Shown: piece by piece, positions 2,418 through 36,144 of the stretch
How the letters are laid out: the number at the start of each line of letters is the position of its first letter
How positions within the stretch are numbered: the stretch's first letter is position 1
DNA from: Shigella phage A2
Sequence record: OP197928
DNA length: 64,000 nt
Strand: one strand, 5' to 3'
The notes under the pieces: model-generated
What the model saw: the letters and a program-made list of their open reading frames with translations, nothing else
Database searches by the model: none
What the model was told of the DNA's origin: nothing
Position numbers and translations under genes: made by a program

Positions 2418-2447
2418 ATTATACCACATCCTTGTGGTAAAGTAAAC
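2418..2447 (-). promoter_or_regulatory. early promoter (GTTTAC -35, 18-bp spacer, TATAAT -10)
   Basis: reverse complement GTTTACtttaccacaaggatgtggTATAAT. Confidence 0.6.
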
Positions 2448-4267
2448 TACTGGCTCATCCATTCTTTACGAAGGTCAGCATTATCTCCCATGAGCATTTC
2501 AAAAAGCTCTTTCCAGTTCTCAGGAAGTTTAACAACATCATATACTGGGTTTTGAATCATCTCACGATATTCAGATTTTTCCAAAGAGCCAAGTCCCTTA
2601 ATATAACGGATGCTATGTTTAGGTAGAGCATCTTTGGCACTCTCATATTCAGCAACTGTATAAAACCATTCTTGTTTTTTACCGACCTGAGCGATGATTA
2701 CAGGAGTTTTGACGAAGCGAATTCTTCCTTGTTCAAACAGTTCTGGCCAATTACTAAAAAATCCGAGCAGAGAAGGATAAATGCTTCCTAGACCATCATG
2801 GTCAGCATCAGTCATAATAGCAATATTATGATAATTCAAGTTTTCAGCCTTTTCACCAAGAACTAATCCAGTGATTGCGCAAATATCAAACAGTTCTTTG
2901 TTTTTAAGCATATCAGCATATGACATACCCCAGCTGTTAAGAACTTTACCGCGCAATGGATAACCACCATGAAGTTCTTTATCGCGAACATCAATAAGAT
3001 ATCCGATAGCAGAATCACCCTCAGTCAAGAAAAGAGTAGTGTCAGCATCTTTACCACAAAGATTCGCTTTAATATGTTTATGAACCTTAGCTTTAGAAGC
3101 CTTTTTAGCTGCTTTAGTTTCTGCTGCCTTTTCTGCTGCCAATTTACGAGCCAAGGCAGCTTCAATAATTGGCATTAAAATTGCTTCATTATTTAGAATA
3201 GCGCGTGAAATCTTTTTAGCATCAAGCTGAATATGACTACGAATTTCGCCAAATGGAGAAGTCAAACGCTCTTTAGTTTGAGAATCAAATCGCATGTTTT
3301 TCATATCACGGACAAACATAACGATAGTCAAACATTCTTTGACACGTGCTTTAGTTACATCAATTTTGAACTTACGTTTGATTTGTGGAATAAGGTCTTC
3401 ACAAATATCATCCATAACACAGTCAATGTGATGGCCACCATTCTTAGTGTGAATGTTATTCACGTAAGTTAATTGACGAAATCCATCCGGTGAACGACCA
3501 ACCGCAATAGAACAATTTTCTTGTTCTTGAACAATAGCATGTTCATCATACTGTCGTGCATATTTCTTAAAATTGCCCTGAACCTTTTTACCGTTAAAGG
3601 TAAATTGAATATCAGGATAAACAACAGCAAGTGTCTGGAGACGATCTAGTGTAATGTCAAGATAAACTTGGGACAGCTCATTAGTTTCAAATGACATAAA
3701 ATCTGGAATGAAAGTAACACGAGTTCCTTTCCATTTTCCAGGAATATCTTCCCATGATTTATTTTCCATGCCGTTTGAACAACGAACTACAATATTATTT
3801 TGACCGTCGCCAGTTTCACCGACAAACATCACAGAAAAAATGTTAGTTAAACTAGAACCAACACCATTCATACCGCCAGTGACGCGTTCTTTATCATCAC
3901 CAAAGTTACCACCTGCTTTTGGAATAGTCCAGGCAGCAACAGGACCAGGAATTTCTTCACCAGTAGGTGTTTTAACCATCGCTTGTGGAATACCGCGACC
4001 ATTATCTTCAACTGTTACTTGATTATTTTTAATAGTAACATTAATTTTATTTGCGAATTTAAACTTAGTACGAATACCTTCATCTACTGAGTTATCGATA
4101 ATTTCATCAATAAGCTTAACAAGACCAGGTACATACTGAACACTTTCCCATTTACCAAACAGAAAGCGCTCATGCATTTCATTAGCTGAAGAGCCAATGT
4201 ACATGCCGCTACGCTTTTTGATATGTTCAATATCGCTCAGAATTTTAATTTCATTCTTAATCATCAC
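2447..4267 (-). CDS. 39: DNA topoisomerase II large (ATPase) subunit, single 606-aa ORF equivalent to T4 gp39 plus gp60
   Basis: GHKL ATPase motifs (IDNSVDEG, VEDNGRGIP, GGMNGVGSS); uninterrupted reading frame through the region that is split in T4. Confidence 0.9.
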   Translation of the reverse strand: MMIKNEIKILSDIEHIKKRSGMYIGSSANEMHERFLFGKWESVQYVPGLVKLIDEIIDNSVDEGIRTKFKFANKINVTIKNNQVTVEDNGRGIPQAMVKTPTGEEIPGPVAAWTIPKAGGNFGDDKERVTGGMNGVGSSLTNIFSVMFVGETGDGQNNIVVRCSNGMENKSWEDIPGKWKGTRVTFIPDFMSFETNELSQVYLDITLDRLQTLAVVYPDIQFTFNGKKVQGNFKKYARQYDEHAIVQEQENCSIAVGRSPDGFRQLTYVNNIHTKNGGHHIDCVMDDICEDLIPQIKRKFKIDVTKARVKECLTIVMFVRDMKNMRFDSQTKERLTSPFGEIRSHIQLDAKKISRAILNNEAILMPIIEAALARKLAAEKAAETKAAKKASKAKVHKHIKANLCGKDADTTLFLTEGDSAIGYLIDVRDKELHGGYPLRGKVLNSWGMSYADMLKNKELFDICAITGLVLGEKAENLNYHNIAIMTDADHDGLGSIYPSLLGFFSNWPELFEQGRIRFVKTPVIIAQVGKKQEWFYTVAEYESAKDALPKHSIRYIKGLGSLEKSEYREMIQNPVYDVVKLPENWKELFEMLMGDNADLRKEWMSQ

Positions 4268-20868: not shown

Positions 20869-21213
20869 TTAAAAGAATTTAAACTTTTTCTTTGACCTTT
20901 TATTAAATGCATCTTGTAGTTGCATTGTAATACATTTTTCTACATGAGGAGCTAACTCAGCTTTTCTTTCTTGGTCAAGAACAGCAAAGTCCATTACGAC
21001 TTTTCCATTAACCCAATCTAATTTTGTCACATACACAATGTGTGTAGAACCATCTTCTAGTTTAATGACAATCTCCTGGATAACATTTTCCATAGCGGAT
21101 TTAATTATCTTAAGAGACTCATTAAAAAGACGTTCTTTTCTTTCTTCTTCCCCCTCCGAAGAGGGGGATTCATCGATAATTTCTAGATCTAAATCTAAAT
21201 CATCTTTATTCAT
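20869..21213 (-). CDS. 40: gp40-like protein (head assembly factor position), about 114 aa
   Basis: ORF between uvsX and 41; start chosen at ATG with GGAAGA SD overlapping uvsX stop. Confidence 0.5.
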   Translation of the reverse strand: MNKDDLDLDLEIIDESPSSEGEEERKERLFNESLKIIKSAMENVIQEIVIKLEDGSTHIVYVTKLDWVNGKVVMDFAVLDQERKAELAPHVEKCITMQLQDAFNKRSKKKFKFF

Positions 21214-22387
21214 TAAATTCTTCCATATCACTTAACTGCTCGAGGTCAGTTTCTAAATCAGCAGCTGATTTACTTTTACTTTCTGGAGATTTAAATTTTT
21301 CAACCTTTGAGTTAATCAATTCATCAACTTCAGCTTCAACAATTTCATTACTATCAATAGCACCTAACTGATAAGCACGTTTAATAGCATCTCGGAATGG
21401 TTGATGCTTAAATAAAGGACCCCAGAATGTGGTGCAGTTGGTATCTTTTGCACGCCAAGATTTTTCTTCGCGAATCATCTCACCGGTTTCTTCATCAAGA
21501 AATTCACGAGCATACCAACCATTTTTAGGTTTTACCACGAATCCTAATTCTAGAGCCATATCTAACAATCCAGAATAAGGATCGATACCGCCGTCAAATT
21601 TAACATCAATAAAGAATTTACTTTTTTCTTTAACGGTACGAGATTTTTCTACATTTAGAACAAATTGATACCCTTGAAGATCAGAACCATCTTTAATCTG
21701 ACGTTTACCGATAATGAATACGGTATCAGCCGAATACATTACGCCTGTACCACCTGTCATCACGGTTTTACTAAACATTTCAATTGTTTCAATTGTATGG
21801 TTAACCGCAACGCACGGAATATTTTTAATGCTAAAATAAGGAGTAACAATACGGAATAATGACTTCAGTGATTTAGCACGAGTCATATCTGCCACAGATT
21901 TTTCATTCAAGGCATCTTCCGTTTCTTTCTTAGAAGCCATATTACCAATTGAGTCGATGAATACAATAACTTTTTCACCGCGCTCAATAGCTTCAAGCTG
22001 ATTCACCATATCAATTTTCAGCTGTTCAACTGACTGGATTGGCGTATGAATTACTCGTTCCGGGTCAACTCCCATTGATCGCAAATAAGCTGGAGTAATA
22101 CCAAATTCGCTATCATAGAATAGACAAACCGCGTCAGGATATTTGTTCAAATACGCCGCAACCATAGTCAAAGACATATTTGATTTAAAGTGTTTAGAAG
22201 GCCCTGCGAAAATAGTTAAACCAGACTGCATACCACCATCAATCGCACCAGAAATAGCAATATTAAGCATTGGAATTTTTGTACGAATTACATCCTTTTC
22301 ATTAAAGAATTTAGATGTAGTCAGTTCAGCAGTCATTTTAGAAGTGGAAGCTTTAATCAAACGGGATTTTAAATCTGCAATAGACAT
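21206..22387 (-). CDS. uvsX: UvsX recombinase (RecA-like), 393 aa
   Basis: RecA fold motifs (GPSKHFKS Walker A); close to T4 UvsX as recalled. Confidence 0.9.
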   Translation of the reverse strand: MSIADLKSRLIKASTSKMTAELTTSKFFNEKDVIRTKIPMLNIAISGAIDGGMQSGLTIFAGPSKHFKSNMSLTMVAAYLNKYPDAVCLFYDSEFGITPAYLRSMGVDPERVIHTPIQSVEQLKIDMVNQLEAIERGEKVIVFIDSIGNMASKKETEDALNEKSVADMTRAKSLKSLFRIVTPYFSIKNIPCVAVNHTIETIEMFSKTVMTGGTGVMYSADTVFIIGKRQIKDGSDLQGYQFVLNVEKSRTVKEKSKFFIDVKFDGGIDPYSGLLDMALELGFVVKPKNGWYAREFLDEETGEMIREEKSWRAKDTNCTTFWGPLFKHQPFRDAIKRAYQLGAIDSNEIVEAEVDELINSKVEKFKSPESKSKSAADLETDLEQLSDMEEFNE

Positions 22388-22440
22388 TCATTTTTTCCAT
22401 AGGCATCATTATATTTTCCTCACTGGTTAAAGATAGAGTA

Positions 22441-22465
22441 ATTATAACACAATAAATTTAGGCAT
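22441..22465 (-). promoter_or_regulatory. possible middle promoter upstream of uvsX (imperfect MotA box)
   Basis: reverse complement ATGCCTAAAtttattgtgtTATAAT. Confidence 0.3.
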
Positions 22466-23307
22466 TAATCAACTGCTATCGGATGAATAGCATTAAACTT
22501 ATGAAATGCTTCTGATTTTTCTTTACGAGAAACACACATGCGAAGAACCTTTAATGGCTCGTCTTCTTCACCCAACGATTTTCGTTTTTCAATATTAGAA
22601 GTTTTCCAACGAGCTTGCTCTGGAAACTCTCTATTGATTTGCTCAAGCGCTCTATTATGTTTAGAATTACTACGAATTGAACTACACCCACCAGGAGCTT
22701 GCGCTTTACCTGATACAACCAGATATTTGAACAAGGCCAAATGCGGATAACCTTGATTAATTAAATTGAGAAATGCATACATATCTTCGCACAAATCAAT
22801 TTTTCCATACCCAATTTGTTCTGTCGTAAGTTTTCCAAGGTCATACCATGTATTCGTGAATCCATATGAATTTTCACGATAATTACCCCAAGATGAAGTA
22901 ATTTTAAAAATAGGTAGACGAGCATGGCCATGATAATACCCGCAATCCATGGCATCCTCAACATATTGAATCAATTCATAGAACTGTTCACGAGTCAATT
23001 GATTGACTTTATCTACGCAACGACGGTCATCTCTTTTTCGCATTGAACTCATACGAATAGTAGTATCATCGTCAATCATCCAGATTCGTTGACCTGCATA
23101 CATATCAGTAATTGCTTTACGAGTACCAGCAATTCCGTTTACATCATCAGGAATAGTTATAATTTTAGCTCTAGACCCATAAGCGTCATAATAAGCTTTT
23201 TCTTCATGTTCACGCACTACAATATGGGGTTCATAATCAGTCGGAAACATATCAAGGGCAGAAACTGCCCCGACCCGCTGATAACTTGGAATTACGAATT
23301 GAATCAT
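22465..23307 (-). CDS. glycosyltransferase in the beta-gt slot; candidate HMC beta-glucosyl-alpha-glucosyltransferase type, 280 aa
   Basis: DxD-type motif IWMIDDDTTI; located between uvsX and 42; length unlike T4 beta-gt (351 aa). Confidence 0.5.
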   Translation of the reverse strand: MIQFVIPSYQRVGAVSALDMFPTDYEPHIVVREHEEKAYYDAYGSRAKIITIPDDVNGIAGTRKAITDMYAGQRIWMIDDDTTIRMSSMRKRDDRRCVDKVNQLTREQFYELIQYVEDAMDCGYYHGHARLPIFKITSSWGNYRENSYGFTNTWYDLGKLTTEQIGYGKIDLCEDMYAFLNLINQGYPHLALFKYLVVSGKAQAPGGCSSIRSNSKHNRALEQINREFPEQARWKTSNIEKRKSLGEEDEPLKVLRMCVSRKEKSEAFHKFNAIHPIAVD

Positions 23308-24044
23308 TTCCACTCACCGTTATAATCTTTTTTCACAATATGAGTTTCGCCAGTATTCCACCAATGATCAACCAAGTAAAAATGACGAGAATATACATGA
23401 AGACTTCCAACATTCCATATAATAGAACCTGCTTTATACTGACGAGTTGAATCGCCTGCATTCAAATCAGATACTAATTTATCTAATACGTATTTTTGCC
23501 ATGCATAATCATTACGGAATCCGAAGACCACGTCATTTGAGCGCATGCTTACTACTGCATTGACTTTCTTGTCACGAATCAGATACTGTACGGTATTCGT
23601 ACACATGAAATCTGACATACCATCTTTATTATAGTCAAACTGCATAGATGGACGAGTATAAATCATGATACCACGTCGAGAATCAGGATTTTGACCAAGT
23701 TCAGCTAAACACATATCATACTGGGCATAGTTATCTTCTGACCAAATAGCCCAACCATAATTCGAGTTAATTTCGCCTTTAGAAGATGCTACCTGCTGCC
23801 AAATCTTTGGTGTTTCACCTGGAATATCTTTAACAAACAAGCTCTTAGATTTATACCATTCAAGTTCGCGCTGAATGTATTCATCATTAAGAGCACCAAA
23901 AATAAACGGTTCATCTGCTACAAATGATGCGCCAATAATTTCAATAGTTTTAACACCAGTTTTATCAACTACGAAATCTTTTTCTTTTAATGCAAGCCCC
24001 AAATGAAGACGGATTTCTTCAACTGTCATAGAGTCACTAATCAT
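23304..24044 (-). CDS. 42: dCMP hydroxymethylase gp42, 246 aa
   Basis: thymidylate-synthase-like fold; 246 aa, N-terminus MISDSMTVEEIRLHLG. Confidence 0.9.
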   Translation of the reverse strand: MISDSMTVEEIRLHLGLALKEKDFVVDKTGVKTIEIIGASFVADEPFIFGALNDEYIQRELEWYKSKSLFVKDIPGETPKIWQQVASSKGEINSNYGWAIWSEDNYAQYDMCLAELGQNPDSRRGIMIYTRPSMQFDYNKDGMSDFMCTNTVQYLIRDKKVNAVVSMRSNDVVFGFRNDYAWQKYVLDKLVSDLNAGDSTRQYKAGSIIWNVGSLHVYSRHFYLVDHWWNTGETHIVKKDYNGEWK

Positions 24045-24151
24045 TTAAACCTCAATTGATACATTCATATTTAACTTGTAACAGTAATAAACCCCAACCT
24101 AAAATAATAGTTGGAATCATAAGAGGAACCGTTACACTATAGTATATACTT

Positions 24152-24177
24152 ATTATAATCATCAAGATTAAAAGCAA
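24152..24177 (-). promoter_or_regulatory. possible middle promoter in imm-42 intergenic region
   Basis: reverse complement TTGCTTTTAatcttgatgatTATAAT. Confidence 0.35.
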
Positions 24178-24197
24178 CACTGTTATAATTTTGCTTT

Positions 24198-24449
24198 TCA
24201 TTCCTTCTCTCTGATGATAATTACCTGATTTGGTTGTGCAGACTTTTTAGTTTCACCCGCAATTGACCAAATAAATGTAATAAACCAACCAATAATTGAC
24301 CAGTTAAACAGTAAAGATGTGAAAAAGATTCCTACTGTCGATTTTGACCCACGCATCAAAGCAATAAACCATGGAAGCATGTATATAATAATAGCCAACA
24401 CACCTGAAACTAAAACCATAAAAATTGAACCTGCTACTAAAGTTTCCAT
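24198..24449 (-). CDS. imm: immunity (superinfection exclusion) membrane protein Imm, 83 aa
   Basis: 83 aa, two hydrophobic TM segments. Confidence 0.7.
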   Translation of the reverse strand: METLVAGSIFMVLVSGVLAIIIYMLPWFIALMRGSKSTVGIFFTSLLFNWSIIGWFITFIWSIAGETKKSAQPNQVIIIREKE

Positions 24450-24464
24450 ATTTTCCTCACTTAG

Positions 24465-24836
24465 TCAAATTTTTACGCATGAATTATAAGAATTCACTAC
24501 ATACTCCATCGGAGCATTTTTACCAGTACGCCATTGGTAATTATTGGCCCAATTAGCCCAAAGCTCGGCGCAGTAGTTTTCAATTTTTTCTTCGCGTGTA
24601 ATTACATCAGAATTACGATATGCTTGAGCAGATTCATCTGGACGAATAGCTTCGTCAAAATTCGCCTGCATTTGTTCGACTGTTTGCTTTGGAGCTTCTT
24701 TATAACACTTGACATTAGGATTATAAAATTTGCTTGAACAGTTTACAATTTTTCCTGCATCAGACTGATTTACTACCGGTCCTTGAGCTACACAACCAGT
24801 AAGACCTAATGCAATAACCAAAATAGCGATTTTCAT
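24465..24836 (-). CDS. putative lipoprotein, 123 aa
   Basis: signal peptide with lipobox LTGC. Confidence 0.5.
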   Translation of the reverse strand: MKIAILVIALGLTGCVAQGPVVNQSDAGKIVNCSSKFYNPNVKCYKEAPKQTVEQMQANFDEAIRPDESAQAYRNSDVITREEKIENYCAELWANWANNYQWRTGKNAPMEYVVNSYNSCVKI

Positions 24837-24846
24837 AATAATTTCC

Positions 24847-25083
24847 TCAAATGCAAGTAGTAATTACTCCAGTAGTGCTTATGCAGGTATTACCCATTTG
24901 CACACCTAAAGATCCATTTGTATTCACATGAAGATTATCATCAATTTTAACTGATATTTTACCATTAGTGTGAATAACAGTGCTAGATTCAATCACAGGT
25001 TGAGTATCATTTTCAACACTAACAAATGGAACAGCTGCTAATGCAACTAAACACACTGCTAAACAACCATAAACAATTTTCAT
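24847..25083 (-). CDS. small secreted/membrane protein, 78 aa
   Basis: ATG 25081-25083 with GGAGAA SD; N-terminal signal-like MKIVYGCLAVCLVALAAVPFVSV. Confidence 0.45.
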   Translation of the reverse strand: MKIVYGCLAVCLVALAAVPFVSVENDTQPVIESSTVIHTNGKISVKIDDNLHVNTNGSLGVQMGNTCISTTGVITTCI

Positions 25084-25117
25084 TTTATTCTCCAAATCCG
25101 TATCAGTTGATAGTTGT

Positions 25118-25147
25118 ATAGTACCACGGAAGAACAGGGATGTAAAC
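25118..25147 (-). promoter_or_regulatory. early promoter downstream of gene 43 terminator
   Basis: reverse complement GTTTACatccctgttcttccgtggTACTAT. Confidence 0.5.
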
Positions 25148-25228
25148 AGTTTTATGAAAAATTTTTTAATGAATTCCAAAGGTCCAGAATCATCTATTTT
25201 TCTTAAGTATAGATTTATATTACTTGTA

Positions 25229-25252
25229 TGAAAAGGGGACCCGGAGGTCCCT
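25229..25252 (-). terminator. intrinsic terminator downstream of gene 43
   Basis: GGGACC-UCCG-GGUCCC followed by CUUUU. Confidence 0.65.
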
Positions 25253-25264
25253 AGATTTATTCTA

Positions 25265-27961
25265 TCAGCCAAACAGGAAGTCTAACGAAGCTTTTTCCTC
25301 ATAGTCCATACCTGCCGATTCACACATACCCGCAAGTGGTTTAACAAACGATTTTTGGAACAAAGTTGAGTAGTCAATCCAAGACAGTACGTCAGAACGA
25401 ATTTCTTTTGGAAGTTCTGTGCCCGACGGCCAAGCAATGCACTTATCACCAAACGGATTTCCTTCACGTAATGGAAGAACCATTACTTTATTTCCATCCA
25501 AAATTGGAGCTACACCTAAACCGTTAACAGCTCGACGATAAGTTAGCACACCACGAATATGGAACGGGCATTTAAACCCTGGCCAACCTTTATCATCATA
25601 TTTCGCTATATCGTTCGCGGTTTTTACTTCAGCAATAACTTTATAGTCAAGCTGACGATATTCTTTCTCGAAGTTCTTGTAATATTCTTGGACAGACTCT
25701 TCACCTTCCTGAAGAATACGACGGATACTTTCTTCAAGAGCTTCTTGGACCGCTTTAGGCGTTGAACTTTGCTGAGTTTCCATACCCATGATTTTTAGAT
25801 GCGGTTCAGCAAATCGCTTATCTTCCATATCATAAACGTTCAGAGCATAACGCTTTTTCGCTTTCCAAAATCCACCAACGCCCTTTGAACCAAGTGGAGG
25901 GCAAGAAATAGCTTCACGGTCCATATGCATCAGATGCTCGCGGTTATTCATATAATCACATAACTCACGATATGCAACATCAATCATAGGTTCCATCTTT
26001 TTCTTACCGAACTGATTCATGAATTCAACTAAATCGTTCTGCTCTTTGAATCGGTCAAGACCAACTTTTTCAATAACTTTATCTACACAAACATATACCG
26101 AATCAGTATCACCTGCTGCGATGAAATCTTCACCATTAGTTCCGCATACTTTATTCAGATATTCATTAATTTTACGAGCAATCCACTGAATACCAACTTG
26201 GCCGAAAATTGTGATAGCAGTAGCATTTCGCAAATCATAGTAACGGAAATGAATATTACCAAGAGCACCATAAAGACTGTTAATAAGAATTTTACGGTTC
26301 AGCTGATTTGTGTTAGCAAGTGTAGCTGCTTTTTCACATTCTTCGATCAGACTATTAAGAACAGATTCAGTGTAATTCGATAATTCATTTAAGAAATCAT
26401 CACTGAACTTAACATATCGTTCAACTTCAGGTTTAGTTGAACAAGACCCTGCGCCTTTCATAATAATCTTTTTAATAGCTTCGGCATTCATTTCTTCAGC
26501 GAACATTTTCTTTTTCCAATCTTTACGCTGGAAAAATACTTTAGCGATTTCCTTTGGAATGATACCTTCTTGATGCTTATCATACATCCATCCATTCGGA
26601 GAACAAGAATATTCATCACTTGGTTTAGGAGCTGTTCCTGCGATATATTCATGAATTGGATGAACTTTAAACTGACCACGAATAGTCTCAGGACTAATGT
26701 TAACCTGACGAATAATGCTCGGATACAGAGACGTCAAGTCAAAACTCATAATATATCGACGAGCAATTGGTTTAGGTTCAAACACAAATGCACCCGGAAA
26801 ACTCTGTTTAACATGCGAACCTTGTTGAGGAATAACCTTATGTTCACCTTTCAATGAGTTAAAAATAATGGCATCCCAGGTTTTAATAGGACTCATTACA
26901 CCAGAAAAAGGCATTTTAGCGTAATAAGACATACTTAAAACTAGATCGATAAACCCGCGAATTTTATCAATTGCTTGAACTGATTCTACGTCAATGATGT
27001 TATAACTAATGTATCGTTGATGATTAGTCTCACGAAGTTTATTAATAGGACCGTCGTATGGTAATTTACCTTTTTTGGTTTCATGCTGAGCAACTGATTC
27101 CAAAGAGAACGATGGCAAATTAGTAAATGCGAACTTCTTGTATAAATCTAAATAATCAAGAATAGATACGCCATCAATAGAATAAATTTCTTTGCTACCG
27201 TACATATTTTGAATTAGTTTAGATTTTACTCGACCGATTGGAGAGAAGCGTTTCATACTGCGTTCACCGAGAACCATTTTAACACGGTTCATGATATACG
27301 GAACGTCAAATCCCTCAATATTCCAACCGGTAAAAATAGCAGGTCGTTTCTGTTCCCAAAGATTGATATATTCCATGAGCATATCACGCTCATTATCGAA
27401 TGGCATATAAATTACTCGGTCAAGAATTTCTTGAGGAACTTCATCACCACCTTCACAGTCAAGCTTAGCAGCTAATTTTGCATCCCATTTTGATACTGAA
27501 CCGTACATTGAATTCAACAAATCAAAGACGTAAAAACGATCGTCAATTGAATCATAATGAGTGATAGCATCAATTTCATATTCTGCTTTCATTGGGTCAG
27601 GAAATTTATCACCAGTAACCTCAATGTCACAGTTAGCTACACGAACAAATTTTCGGTCATAAACAATTTCTGAACCATATGTATCACTGATATAAGCGAG
27701 TTTAAAATCGTTCATACCGAGAGCTTCGAGACCGATGTCTTCCATCCGCTTCATCCAGTCTCGTGCATCTTTCATTGATGGAAATTTTTGAGGAGCGCAA
27801 TTTTTACCATAAATGTCTTTGTATTTTGACTCTTCCTTACAATGCCTAAACATAGTCGGAAGATATTCTACTTCACGAGTACGTTCCTTTCCGTTTTCAT
27901 CAATATAACGTTCAACAATGTTATTTCCGACTGTTTCGATAGAGATATAAAATTCTTTCAT
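25265..27961 (-). CDS. 43: DNA polymerase gp43 (family B), 898 aa
   Basis: 898 aa; exonuclease and polymerase motifs (DIE, YGDTDS); translational operator hairpin upstream. Confidence 0.95.
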   Translation of the reverse strand: MKEFYISIETVGNNIVERYIDENGKERTREVEYLPTMFRHCKEESKYKDIYGKNCAPQKFPSMKDARDWMKRMEDIGLEALGMNDFKLAYISDTYGSEIVYDRKFVRVANCDIEVTGDKFPDPMKAEYEIDAITHYDSIDDRFYVFDLLNSMYGSVSKWDAKLAAKLDCEGGDEVPQEILDRVIYMPFDNERDMLMEYINLWEQKRPAIFTGWNIEGFDVPYIMNRVKMVLGERSMKRFSPIGRVKSKLIQNMYGSKEIYSIDGVSILDYLDLYKKFAFTNLPSFSLESVAQHETKKGKLPYDGPINKLRETNHQRYISYNIIDVESVQAIDKIRGFIDLVLSMSYYAKMPFSGVMSPIKTWDAIIFNSLKGEHKVIPQQGSHVKQSFPGAFVFEPKPIARRYIMSFDLTSLYPSIIRQVNISPETIRGQFKVHPIHEYIAGTAPKPSDEYSCSPNGWMYDKHQEGIIPKEIAKVFFQRKDWKKKMFAEEMNAEAIKKIIMKGAGSCSTKPEVERYVKFSDDFLNELSNYTESVLNSLIEECEKAATLANTNQLNRKILINSLYGALGNIHFRYYDLRNATAITIFGQVGIQWIARKINEYLNKVCGTNGEDFIAAGDTDSVYVCVDKVIEKVGLDRFKEQNDLVEFMNQFGKKKMEPMIDVAYRELCDYMNNREHLMHMDREAISCPPLGSKGVGGFWKAKKRYALNVYDMEDKRFAEPHLKIMGMETQQSSTPKAVQEALEESIRRILQEGEESVQEYYKNFEKEYRQLDYKVIAEVKTANDIAKYDDKGWPGFKCPFHIRGVLTYRRAVNGLGVAPILDGNKVMVLPLREGNPFGDKCIAWPSGTELPKEIRSDVLSWIDYSTLFQKSFVKPLAGMCESAGMDYEEKASLDFLFG

Positions 27962-34925: not shown

Positions 34926-34943
34926 AAAGGGCCGAAGCCCTTT
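34926..34943 (-). terminator. UUCG-tetraloop stem-loop downstream of alpha-gt
   Basis: AAAGGGC-UUCG-GCCCUUU. Confidence 0.45.
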
Positions 34944-36144
34944 ATTTTGTAATAATGTCAAACTGTTCTTTAAAGCAGAAGCTTGAATCTTGATGCTGAT
35001 ACAAAAATTCATAAGCTTTTTCACGTTCGCGGTCATAAAGAGTTCGGTCAGATGACAGTTCTTTAATACGTTCAAATGTTGATTCCATATCATTTTCATC
35101 AAACCAAATGATACCGCTATCATGCGAGGTCAAAGGAGTATTATCAACACGGAATTTTAAATTTTCGCCAGTAGATTTCCAAAATACCGGAATTGTTCCG
35201 CATGCACCAAGCTCGAGATGAGTATATTCTAAAGAACGCTGTAGATATTTTTTGTCCAACTTACTCAGCTGATAACCAAATCCGGATTTACTCATACGTT
35301 CAAGCATTTCGCTATTTACATAACGGTCAAGAATTTGCGTTGGCAAATTAGGAGCAATTTTAATTTGGTCTACTTGATGAAGACGATAATACTCGTATGG
35401 AATTCCTTTTTCTTTAATAGGAATGAACGCTGGAGAACGTTCCAGACCTTCCATAATAGTACTTAGTCCTGCAGGTTTAAGATGTTTTTCGTGAAAATCA
35501 AACATCTGATAAAAACCTTTCCATGTAGTCGTACGACCAATCCAACGGTTGATATTCATGTTAATTTCAGAAACATCTTTCCAGTAGGTTGATCGAACTT
35601 TCGCAATATCCATAGGAGGCTGAAAGTTATATACTGTCGGTGCTTCTTCAATATCATCAAACAGAGAAACAGTTTCTGGATACCATTCTTTCATCAGAAC
35701 TTTATTAAAATCACCATTATCAGAATGGCTAAAAATAACATCAGCTCGACGAACAGTTTCTTCTAATCCCAAATTTCGGCGCAAAGAAAGAGAAGAATGG
35801 TCATGTTGATAAACTACAACACGAACCGAAGGTTTAATGTTATCAATAATTTTTTTATAGTTATTAATAGTGTCTTCTTCGACTGAAGTAGCAGGAACTG
35901 AATTGATAATTAGAATATCACAATCATTTACCAGCTTAAGTGTTTTATCGTATTCTTTTGCCAATAAAACCGGAATTGAAAATGACTTATAATCATGCGC
36001 GCAATTACGAGTAAATGATTTATCTTTAGCATAAACCAAAGTTACTTCATGACCATTTTTAATAAACCAATCACGTTGCTCAAGAGAAAATTTAGTTACG
36101 CCGCAACCTTCAAGACCTCGAGCCATAAAAATGCATACTTTCAT
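34942..36144 (-). CDS. a-gt: DNA alpha-glucosyltransferase, 400 aa
   Basis: 400 aa; sequence as recalled for T4 alpha-gt (..CIFMARGLEGCGVTKFSLEQRDWF..). Confidence 0.9.
   Translation of the reverse strand: MKVCIFMARGLEGCGVTKFSLEQRDWFIKNGHEVTLVYAKDKSFTRNCAHDYKSFSIPVLLAKEYDKTLKLVNDCDILIINSVPATSVEEDTINNYKKIIDNIKPSVRVVVYQHDHSSLSLRRNLGLEETVRRADVIFSHSDNGDFNKVLMKEWYPETVSLFDDIEEAPTVYNFQPPMDIAKVRSTYWKDVSEINMNINRWIGRTTTWKGFYQMFDFHEKHLKPAGLSTIMEGLERSPAFIPIKEKGIPYEYYRLHQVDQIKIAPNLPTQILDRYVNSEMLERMSKSGFGYQLSKLDKKYLQRSLEYTHLELGACGTIPVFWKSTGENLKFRVDNTPLTSHDSGIIWFDENDMESTFERIKELSSDRTLYDREREKAYEFLYQHQDSSFCFKEQFDIITK

Follow-up and report, generated by a model that had tools for sequence, protein, structure and literature searches.

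The sequenced window comprises 64,000 nucleotides of Shigella phage A2 DNA (sequence record OP197928), wherein the genes uvsX and 42 flank a gene for a 280-amino acid protein that corresponds to ba-gt (also g-gt or TAGT), the beta-glucosyl-HMC-alpha-glucosyltransferase of T4-like phages (Table 1). The program-made list of open reading frames gives this gene as 22465..23313 on the minus strand, with a GTG start and 282 codons for amino acids. An ATG at position 23307, two codons inside this longer frame, yields the 280-residue protein, and thus the coordinates and length proposed in a preliminary description of this DNA were right. The ATG overlaps the TGA stop codon of gene 42 (ATGA) within GGAAATGATT.

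Gene 42 is 96% identical in nucleotide sequence to its T4 equivalent, and there is synteny with phages AR1 and T2. The window also carries an a-gt gene for a 400-residue protein, as had been reported, which is syntenic with the a-gt of AR1. Its placement "downstream" of ba-gt holds only in plus-strand coordinates, as all of the genes lie on the minus strand and a-gt is upstream in the direction of transcription.

Table 1. Features of the ba-gt locus and its partner genes in the phage A2 window
Feature	Position in window	Strand	Description	Basis
ba-gt (g-gt / TAGT)	22465..23307	-	beta-glucosyl-HMC-alpha-glucosyltransferase, 280 aa	ORF, PF20691, PHROG 842, likeness to T2
IWMIDDDTTI	23056-23085	-	residues 75-84 of ba-gt	translation
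DDD	23065..23073	-	residues 79-81; DxD metal / nucleotide-sugar binding motif, closing strand E74-79	conservation and AlphaFold2 model
R11 codon	23275..23277	-	in motif IPSYQR; conserved family-wide, H in T2	153-sequence alignment
uvsX	21206..22387	-	flank of the ba-gt slot	PF21134 and PF00154
Gene 42	23304..24044	-	dCMP hydroxymethylase, source of the hmC precursor; stop codon runs into the ba-gt ATG	PF00303 (thymidylate synthase family)
a-gt	34942..36144	-	DNA alpha-glucosyltransferase, 400 aa; makes the alpha-glucosyl-hmC acceptor of ba-gt	PF11440, E = 4e-237
Segment without T4 homology	22376..23321	-	946 bp, versus 1941 bp (segA and b-gt) in T4	blastn of window versus T4

The slot between uvsX and gene 42 differs from that of T4

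In T4, the same slot holds b-gt (1056 nt, encoding 351 residues, as in the preliminary description) plus segA. Homology between the window and T4 ends 12 nt inside uvsX (window position 22375) and restarts at window position 23322, 18 nt short of the gene 42 terminus. As judged from this alignment, the presence of ba-gt in one phage and of segA with b-gt in the other is a clean cassette difference within a conserved slot. The phage A2 slot lacks a homing endonuclease gene, whereas that of T4 has segA.

The earlier impression that the phage A2 protein does not resemble T4 b-gt held up, as the best BLASTP comparison of the two gave E = 2.2, which amounts to nothing. Likewise, the T4 b-gt family model (PF09198) had no match in the ba-gt protein at E <= 1, and a tblastn search of the whole 64-kb window with T4 b-gt found no gene of this type (best E = 2.5).

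Several other features of the region were recorded. An 18-codon open reading frame, MMPMEKMNVYCRFKIPFD (window 22356-22409, minus strand), follows a Shine-Dalgarno-like sequence, GAGGAAA, and crosses the uvsX start codon out of frame. The stretch that includes it is identical in T2 and T6, and the reading frame may be due to chance. A 7-codon leader abutting the uvsX ATG had been considered for translational coupling and was rejected, because translation gives the out-of-frame 18-codon frame instead. A scan of positions 21100-25400 for promoters and terminators yielded 19 promoter-like sequences (19.0 in shuffled sequence) and 4 terminator-like sequences (2.1 in shuffled sequence), and hence nothing above the shuffled background. 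Farther away, about 240 bp in the interval between imm.1 and gene 43 (window 24837-25075) have no T4 counterpart and occupy the position of a small hypothetical open reading frame of AR1 (AR1_049) and T2. Finally, the open reading frame list includes a single 606-aa frame at window 2447-4267 (minus strand), in what we take to be the position expected for topoisomerase gene 39. T4 has gene 39 in two parts (39 and 60), and in T2/T6-type phages it is fused.

The gene encodes a member of the TAGT family with many close relatives

The ba-gt protein matches the model for TET-associated glycosyltransferases (TAGT, PF20691) with 38.9 bits against a gathering cut-off of 27.5, and the match spans profile positions 2 to 205 of 205. 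It also matches PHROG 842, "beta-glucosyl-HMC-alpha-glucosyltransferase", with E = 6e-89. No match to the GT2 model PF00535 was seen in ba-gt, as a Pfam search at E <= 1 returned PF20691 alone.

Close relatives are numerous. A megablast search with window positions 22300-23500 matched 591 phage records, with query coverage of at least 80% in 474 of them and a top identity of 98.8%. The matching records repeatedly annotate the gene as "beta-glucosyl-HMC-alpha-glucosyl-transferase", and it occupies the same position in many Tequatrovirus records. At the protein level, tblastn returned 688 records, including 249 with at least 99% identity and several phages with 100%. Below these, a group of T4-like phages of Klebsiella, Enterobacter, and Salmonella stands at about 65% identity. 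The exact phage A2 protein is already public on 153 contigs. Among the Durham phages, the enzyme of CP differs from that of phage A2 by one residue (V30A) and that of Some by two (A14T and Y40H). The enzymes of EL and Geo are seven residues away, and phage A2 carries none of their seven substitutions.

The arrangement had been proposed to be of the T2/T6 type, with a beta-alpha transferase in the b-gt slot, and this is what the comparisons reveal: 278 of the 280 residues are identical to the T2 enzyme, and family models and slot agree. How common this arrangement is had been underrated, however. In the genus Tequatrovirus, a-GT is commonly paired with TAGT, and T4 departs from this norm with its pairing of a-GT and b-GT, which occurs in only 6 of 753 genomes (PMC13216743).

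Predicted structure and conserved residues

An AlphaFold2 model of the ba-gt protein, built from an alignment of only nine sequences and of moderate confidence, has a mean pLDDT of 72.5 and a pTM of 0.73. Strands and helices alternate in the model, and residues 131-150 and 203-211 fall below a pLDDT of 50. The predicted fold is GT-A (nucleotide-diphospho-sugar transferase), as is typical of GT2-like inverting transferases, and so structure prediction agrees with the glycosyltransferase identity originally suggested by the DxD-type motif, which is present in the translation. Enzymes of the GT2-like GT-A class invert the anomeric configuration, and such a fold would fit the formation of a beta linkage from UDP-alpha-glucose. 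The top match in a BFVD structure search was the ba-gt of a Klebsiella phage (E = 6e-31), followed by TAGT-domain proteins. A PDB sequence search found no solved structure of any ba-gt family member, giving two matches at chance level (E of 1.6-2).

A profile search recovered 2165 representatives of the ba-gt family, 153 of which were aligned to score conservation. Ten residues (R11, R63, D79, D80, D81, D175, G186, G206, G207, and R212) are conserved at 93-100%, and all are present in phage A2. The three aspartates of the DDD motif (residues 79, 80, and 81) are conserved at 99%, 100%, and 95%, respectively. The identity of the gene, its synteny, predicted fold, conserved residues, and partner genes are established by the present analysis.

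R11 is altered in T2 and the T6 records carry lesions

R11 is found in 151 of the 153 family representatives, and the remaining two have gaps at this position. By comparison, R11H occurs together with P251S in all three GenBank T2 records and in SV76 (L004:2283-3125, L011:1286-2128, L012:1295-2137, and L013:101-943), and among 14 near-identical cluster members, H11 is confined to the T2 protein. A pattern scan of IMG/VR found the H11 codon context in 0 contigs and the R11 context in 5, a sample too small for a census.

Given its position in the family alignment, R11H may be a cause of the low gentiobiosylation of T2 DNA, wherein gentiobiosyl-hmC accounts for about 5%, versus about 72% in T6 (PMC6024577). 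The fuller proposal, that the ba-gt allele itself sets the extent of gentiobiosylation and that R11H causes the difference between T2 and T6, is tentative, and we would give it somewhat less than even odds. If R11H does lower gentiobiosylation, then the R11 allele of phage A2 predicts T6-like DNA. Such an effect would bear on the family and implies nothing unusual about phage A2.

Both GenBank T6 records are damaged in ba-gt, by different lesions. In MH550421 (L003:2138-2980), a CAG-to-TAG change creates an amber codon at codon 10, and the gene is annotated as 261 aa from Met20. In AP018814 (L005:2135-2974), one GAT of (GAT)3 is lost in frame, which converts DDD to DD. These two record lesions suggest possible variation in DNA modification among laboratory T6 stocks.

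Proposed pathway and composition of phage A2 DNA

We conclude, with a probability of roughly 0.9, that the gene encodes an inverting, GT-A-fold enzyme of the TAGT family and of the T2/T6 type that makes gentiobiosyl-hmC. Relatives and the literature are our guides to its donor, its linkage, the extent of modification, and the defense phenotype. A three-step route from hm-dCMP synthesis through alpha-glucosyl-hmC to gentiobiosyl-hmC has been described (PMC6024577, PMC11078745, PMC13216743). In phage A2, the gene 42 product would make hm-dCMP, and the phage polymerase would place hmC into DNA. After replication, a-gt would glucosylate this hmC in alpha linkage. The ba-gt enzyme would then bind UDP-glucose by means of its DDD residues and a divalent metal and attach another glucose to the alpha-glucose through a beta-1,6 bond, giving gentiobiosyl-hmC. 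The gene therefore predicts hypermodified DNA of this kind and not the mix of alpha- and beta-glucosyl-hmC of T4.

Related phages offer a guide to how far the last step would proceed. The DNA of CP, Some, and five other Tequatrovirus isolates is about two-thirds gentiobiosylated; for CP and Some, the modified cytosine measured is about two-thirds alpha-gentiobiosyl-mdC and about one-third 5-hmdC, with no beta-glucosyl form (PMC13390438). EL, BGP, and Geo have a 1:2:2 mix of hmC, alpha-glucosyl, and gentiobiosyl forms (PMC13390438). Because the phage A2 enzyme is one or two residues from those of CP and Some and seven from those of EL and Geo, its DNA is expected to be T6-like: gentiobiosyl-hmC would predominate, with a smaller share of bare hmC and not much alpha-glucosyl-hmC.

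Possession of the gene does not by itself reveal how far the DNA is gentiobiosylated. The T2 protein differs by R11H and P251S alone, yet T2 has only the few per cent noted above (PMC6024577), and enzymes seven residues away accompany the intermediate levels of EL and Geo (PMC13390438). These cases would be in keeping with a weak ba-gt allele in phage A2 as in T2, which would leave a few per cent of gentiobiosyl-hmC in DNA that is mainly alpha-glucosylated, and levels could also hinge on a-gt, expression, or the supply of UDP-glucose by the host. Such an allele is unlikely, because phage A2 retains the R11 that is changed in T2 and kept in 151 of the 153 aligned family members. The absence of every EL/Geo substitution and the closeness to the T6-like CP and Some also argue against it.

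Two other activities must be weighed. The enzyme could act directly on hmC as a beta-glucosyltransferase and so be a nonhomologous functional replacement of T4 b-gt, whose slot it shares; several records indeed label the gene "b-gt" or "putative beta-glucosyltransferase", and solitary TAGT homologs exist in phages that lack both a-GT and b-GT (PMC13216743). However, beta-glucosyl-mdC was undetected in ten Tequatrovirus phages that carry ba-gt (PMC13390438), the DNA of T6 deleted for ba-gt behaves as alpha-glucosyl-hmC only (PMC11078745), and a transferase of this kind would be expected to fill the approximately 25% of hmC that T2 and T6 keep bare. We consider direct action on hmC very improbable. 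Transfer of another sugar, such as arabinose, or modification of an acceptor other than DNA is harder still to credit: TAGT and GT-A enzymes are diverse, the donor does not follow from the fold, and arabinosylating relatives are known among T4-like phages (PMC6024577), but these belong to another genus (Mosigvirus) with different modification genes, and the phage A2 enzyme is nearly identical to those of phages with measured gentiobiosyl DNA (PMC13390438). A T2/T6-type enzyme that extends alpha-glucosyl-hmC to gentiobiosyl-hmC remains the reading that we adopt.

Consequences for defense

The preliminary description anticipated altered sensitivity to modification-dependent restriction, and this expectation is backed by published experiments with T6 lacking ba-gt (PMC11078745; bioRxiv 10.64898/2026.02.25.707755). 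Such T6 DNA retains only alpha-glucosyl-hmC and becomes a substrate for Brig1, an alpha-glucosyl-hmC glycosylase, to which the phage is then more sensitive (PMC11078745). Similarly, BapA frees glucose from T6 delta-g-gt DNA and not from wild-type T6 DNA (bioRxiv 10.64898/2026.02.25.707755). Gentiobiosyl DNA is nevertheless still cut by GmrSD and BrxU (PMC13216743, PMC13390438). The presence of gentiobiosyl-hmC in phage A2 would thus predict which defenses are escaped and which are not: its DNA would be shielded from systems that read or strip a single alpha-glucose, such as Brig1 and BapA, and would be left open to enzymes of the GmrSD and BrxU types. The same modification predicts how restriction enzymes would act on the DNA and how it would perform in sequencing. 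As these consequences for modification and defense are established for T2/T6-type phages, the value of the present analysis lies in annotation rather than discovery. The phage A2 assignment is the correct annotation of an already known gene that is ordinary among T4-like phages.

Comparison with known systems

One likeness is to GT-A glycosyltransferases of the inverting GT2 family, such as TarP (6h1j), AvpGT (9jma), and BcsA (4p00), which resemble the phage A2 enzyme at the level of fold only. T4 b-gt (PF09198) occupies the same genomic slot, accompanied there by segA. Both enzymes would be UDP-glucose-dependent, DNA-modifying glucosyltransferases that form a beta linkage, with the donor and linkage in phage A2 presumed from relatives. 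The two are without sequence similarity, and the GT-B fold of T4 b-gt (PMC13216743) contrasts with the GT-A fold predicted here. Their acceptors would also differ, being hmC for T4 b-gt and alpha-glucosyl-hmC for ba-gt.

The alignments that the preliminary description called for gave near-identity to the T2 and T6 enzymes and none to T4 b-gt. The two differences from T2 are R11 and P251, which in T2 are H and S. Relative to the reading frame of the T6 record MH550421, 276 of 280 residues are identical; three of the differences are substitutions (N, G, and H in T6 for Y40, D55, and R106 of phage A2), and the fourth is the amber codon of that record. Everything that could be run computationally (family model, near-identity, slot, conserved residues, GT-A fold, and a-gt partner) places the phage A2 gene with those of T2 and T6. 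The three share the 280-residue length, the position between gene 42 and uvsX, the ATGA overlap, and the a-gt partner, and they differ in nothing of substance.
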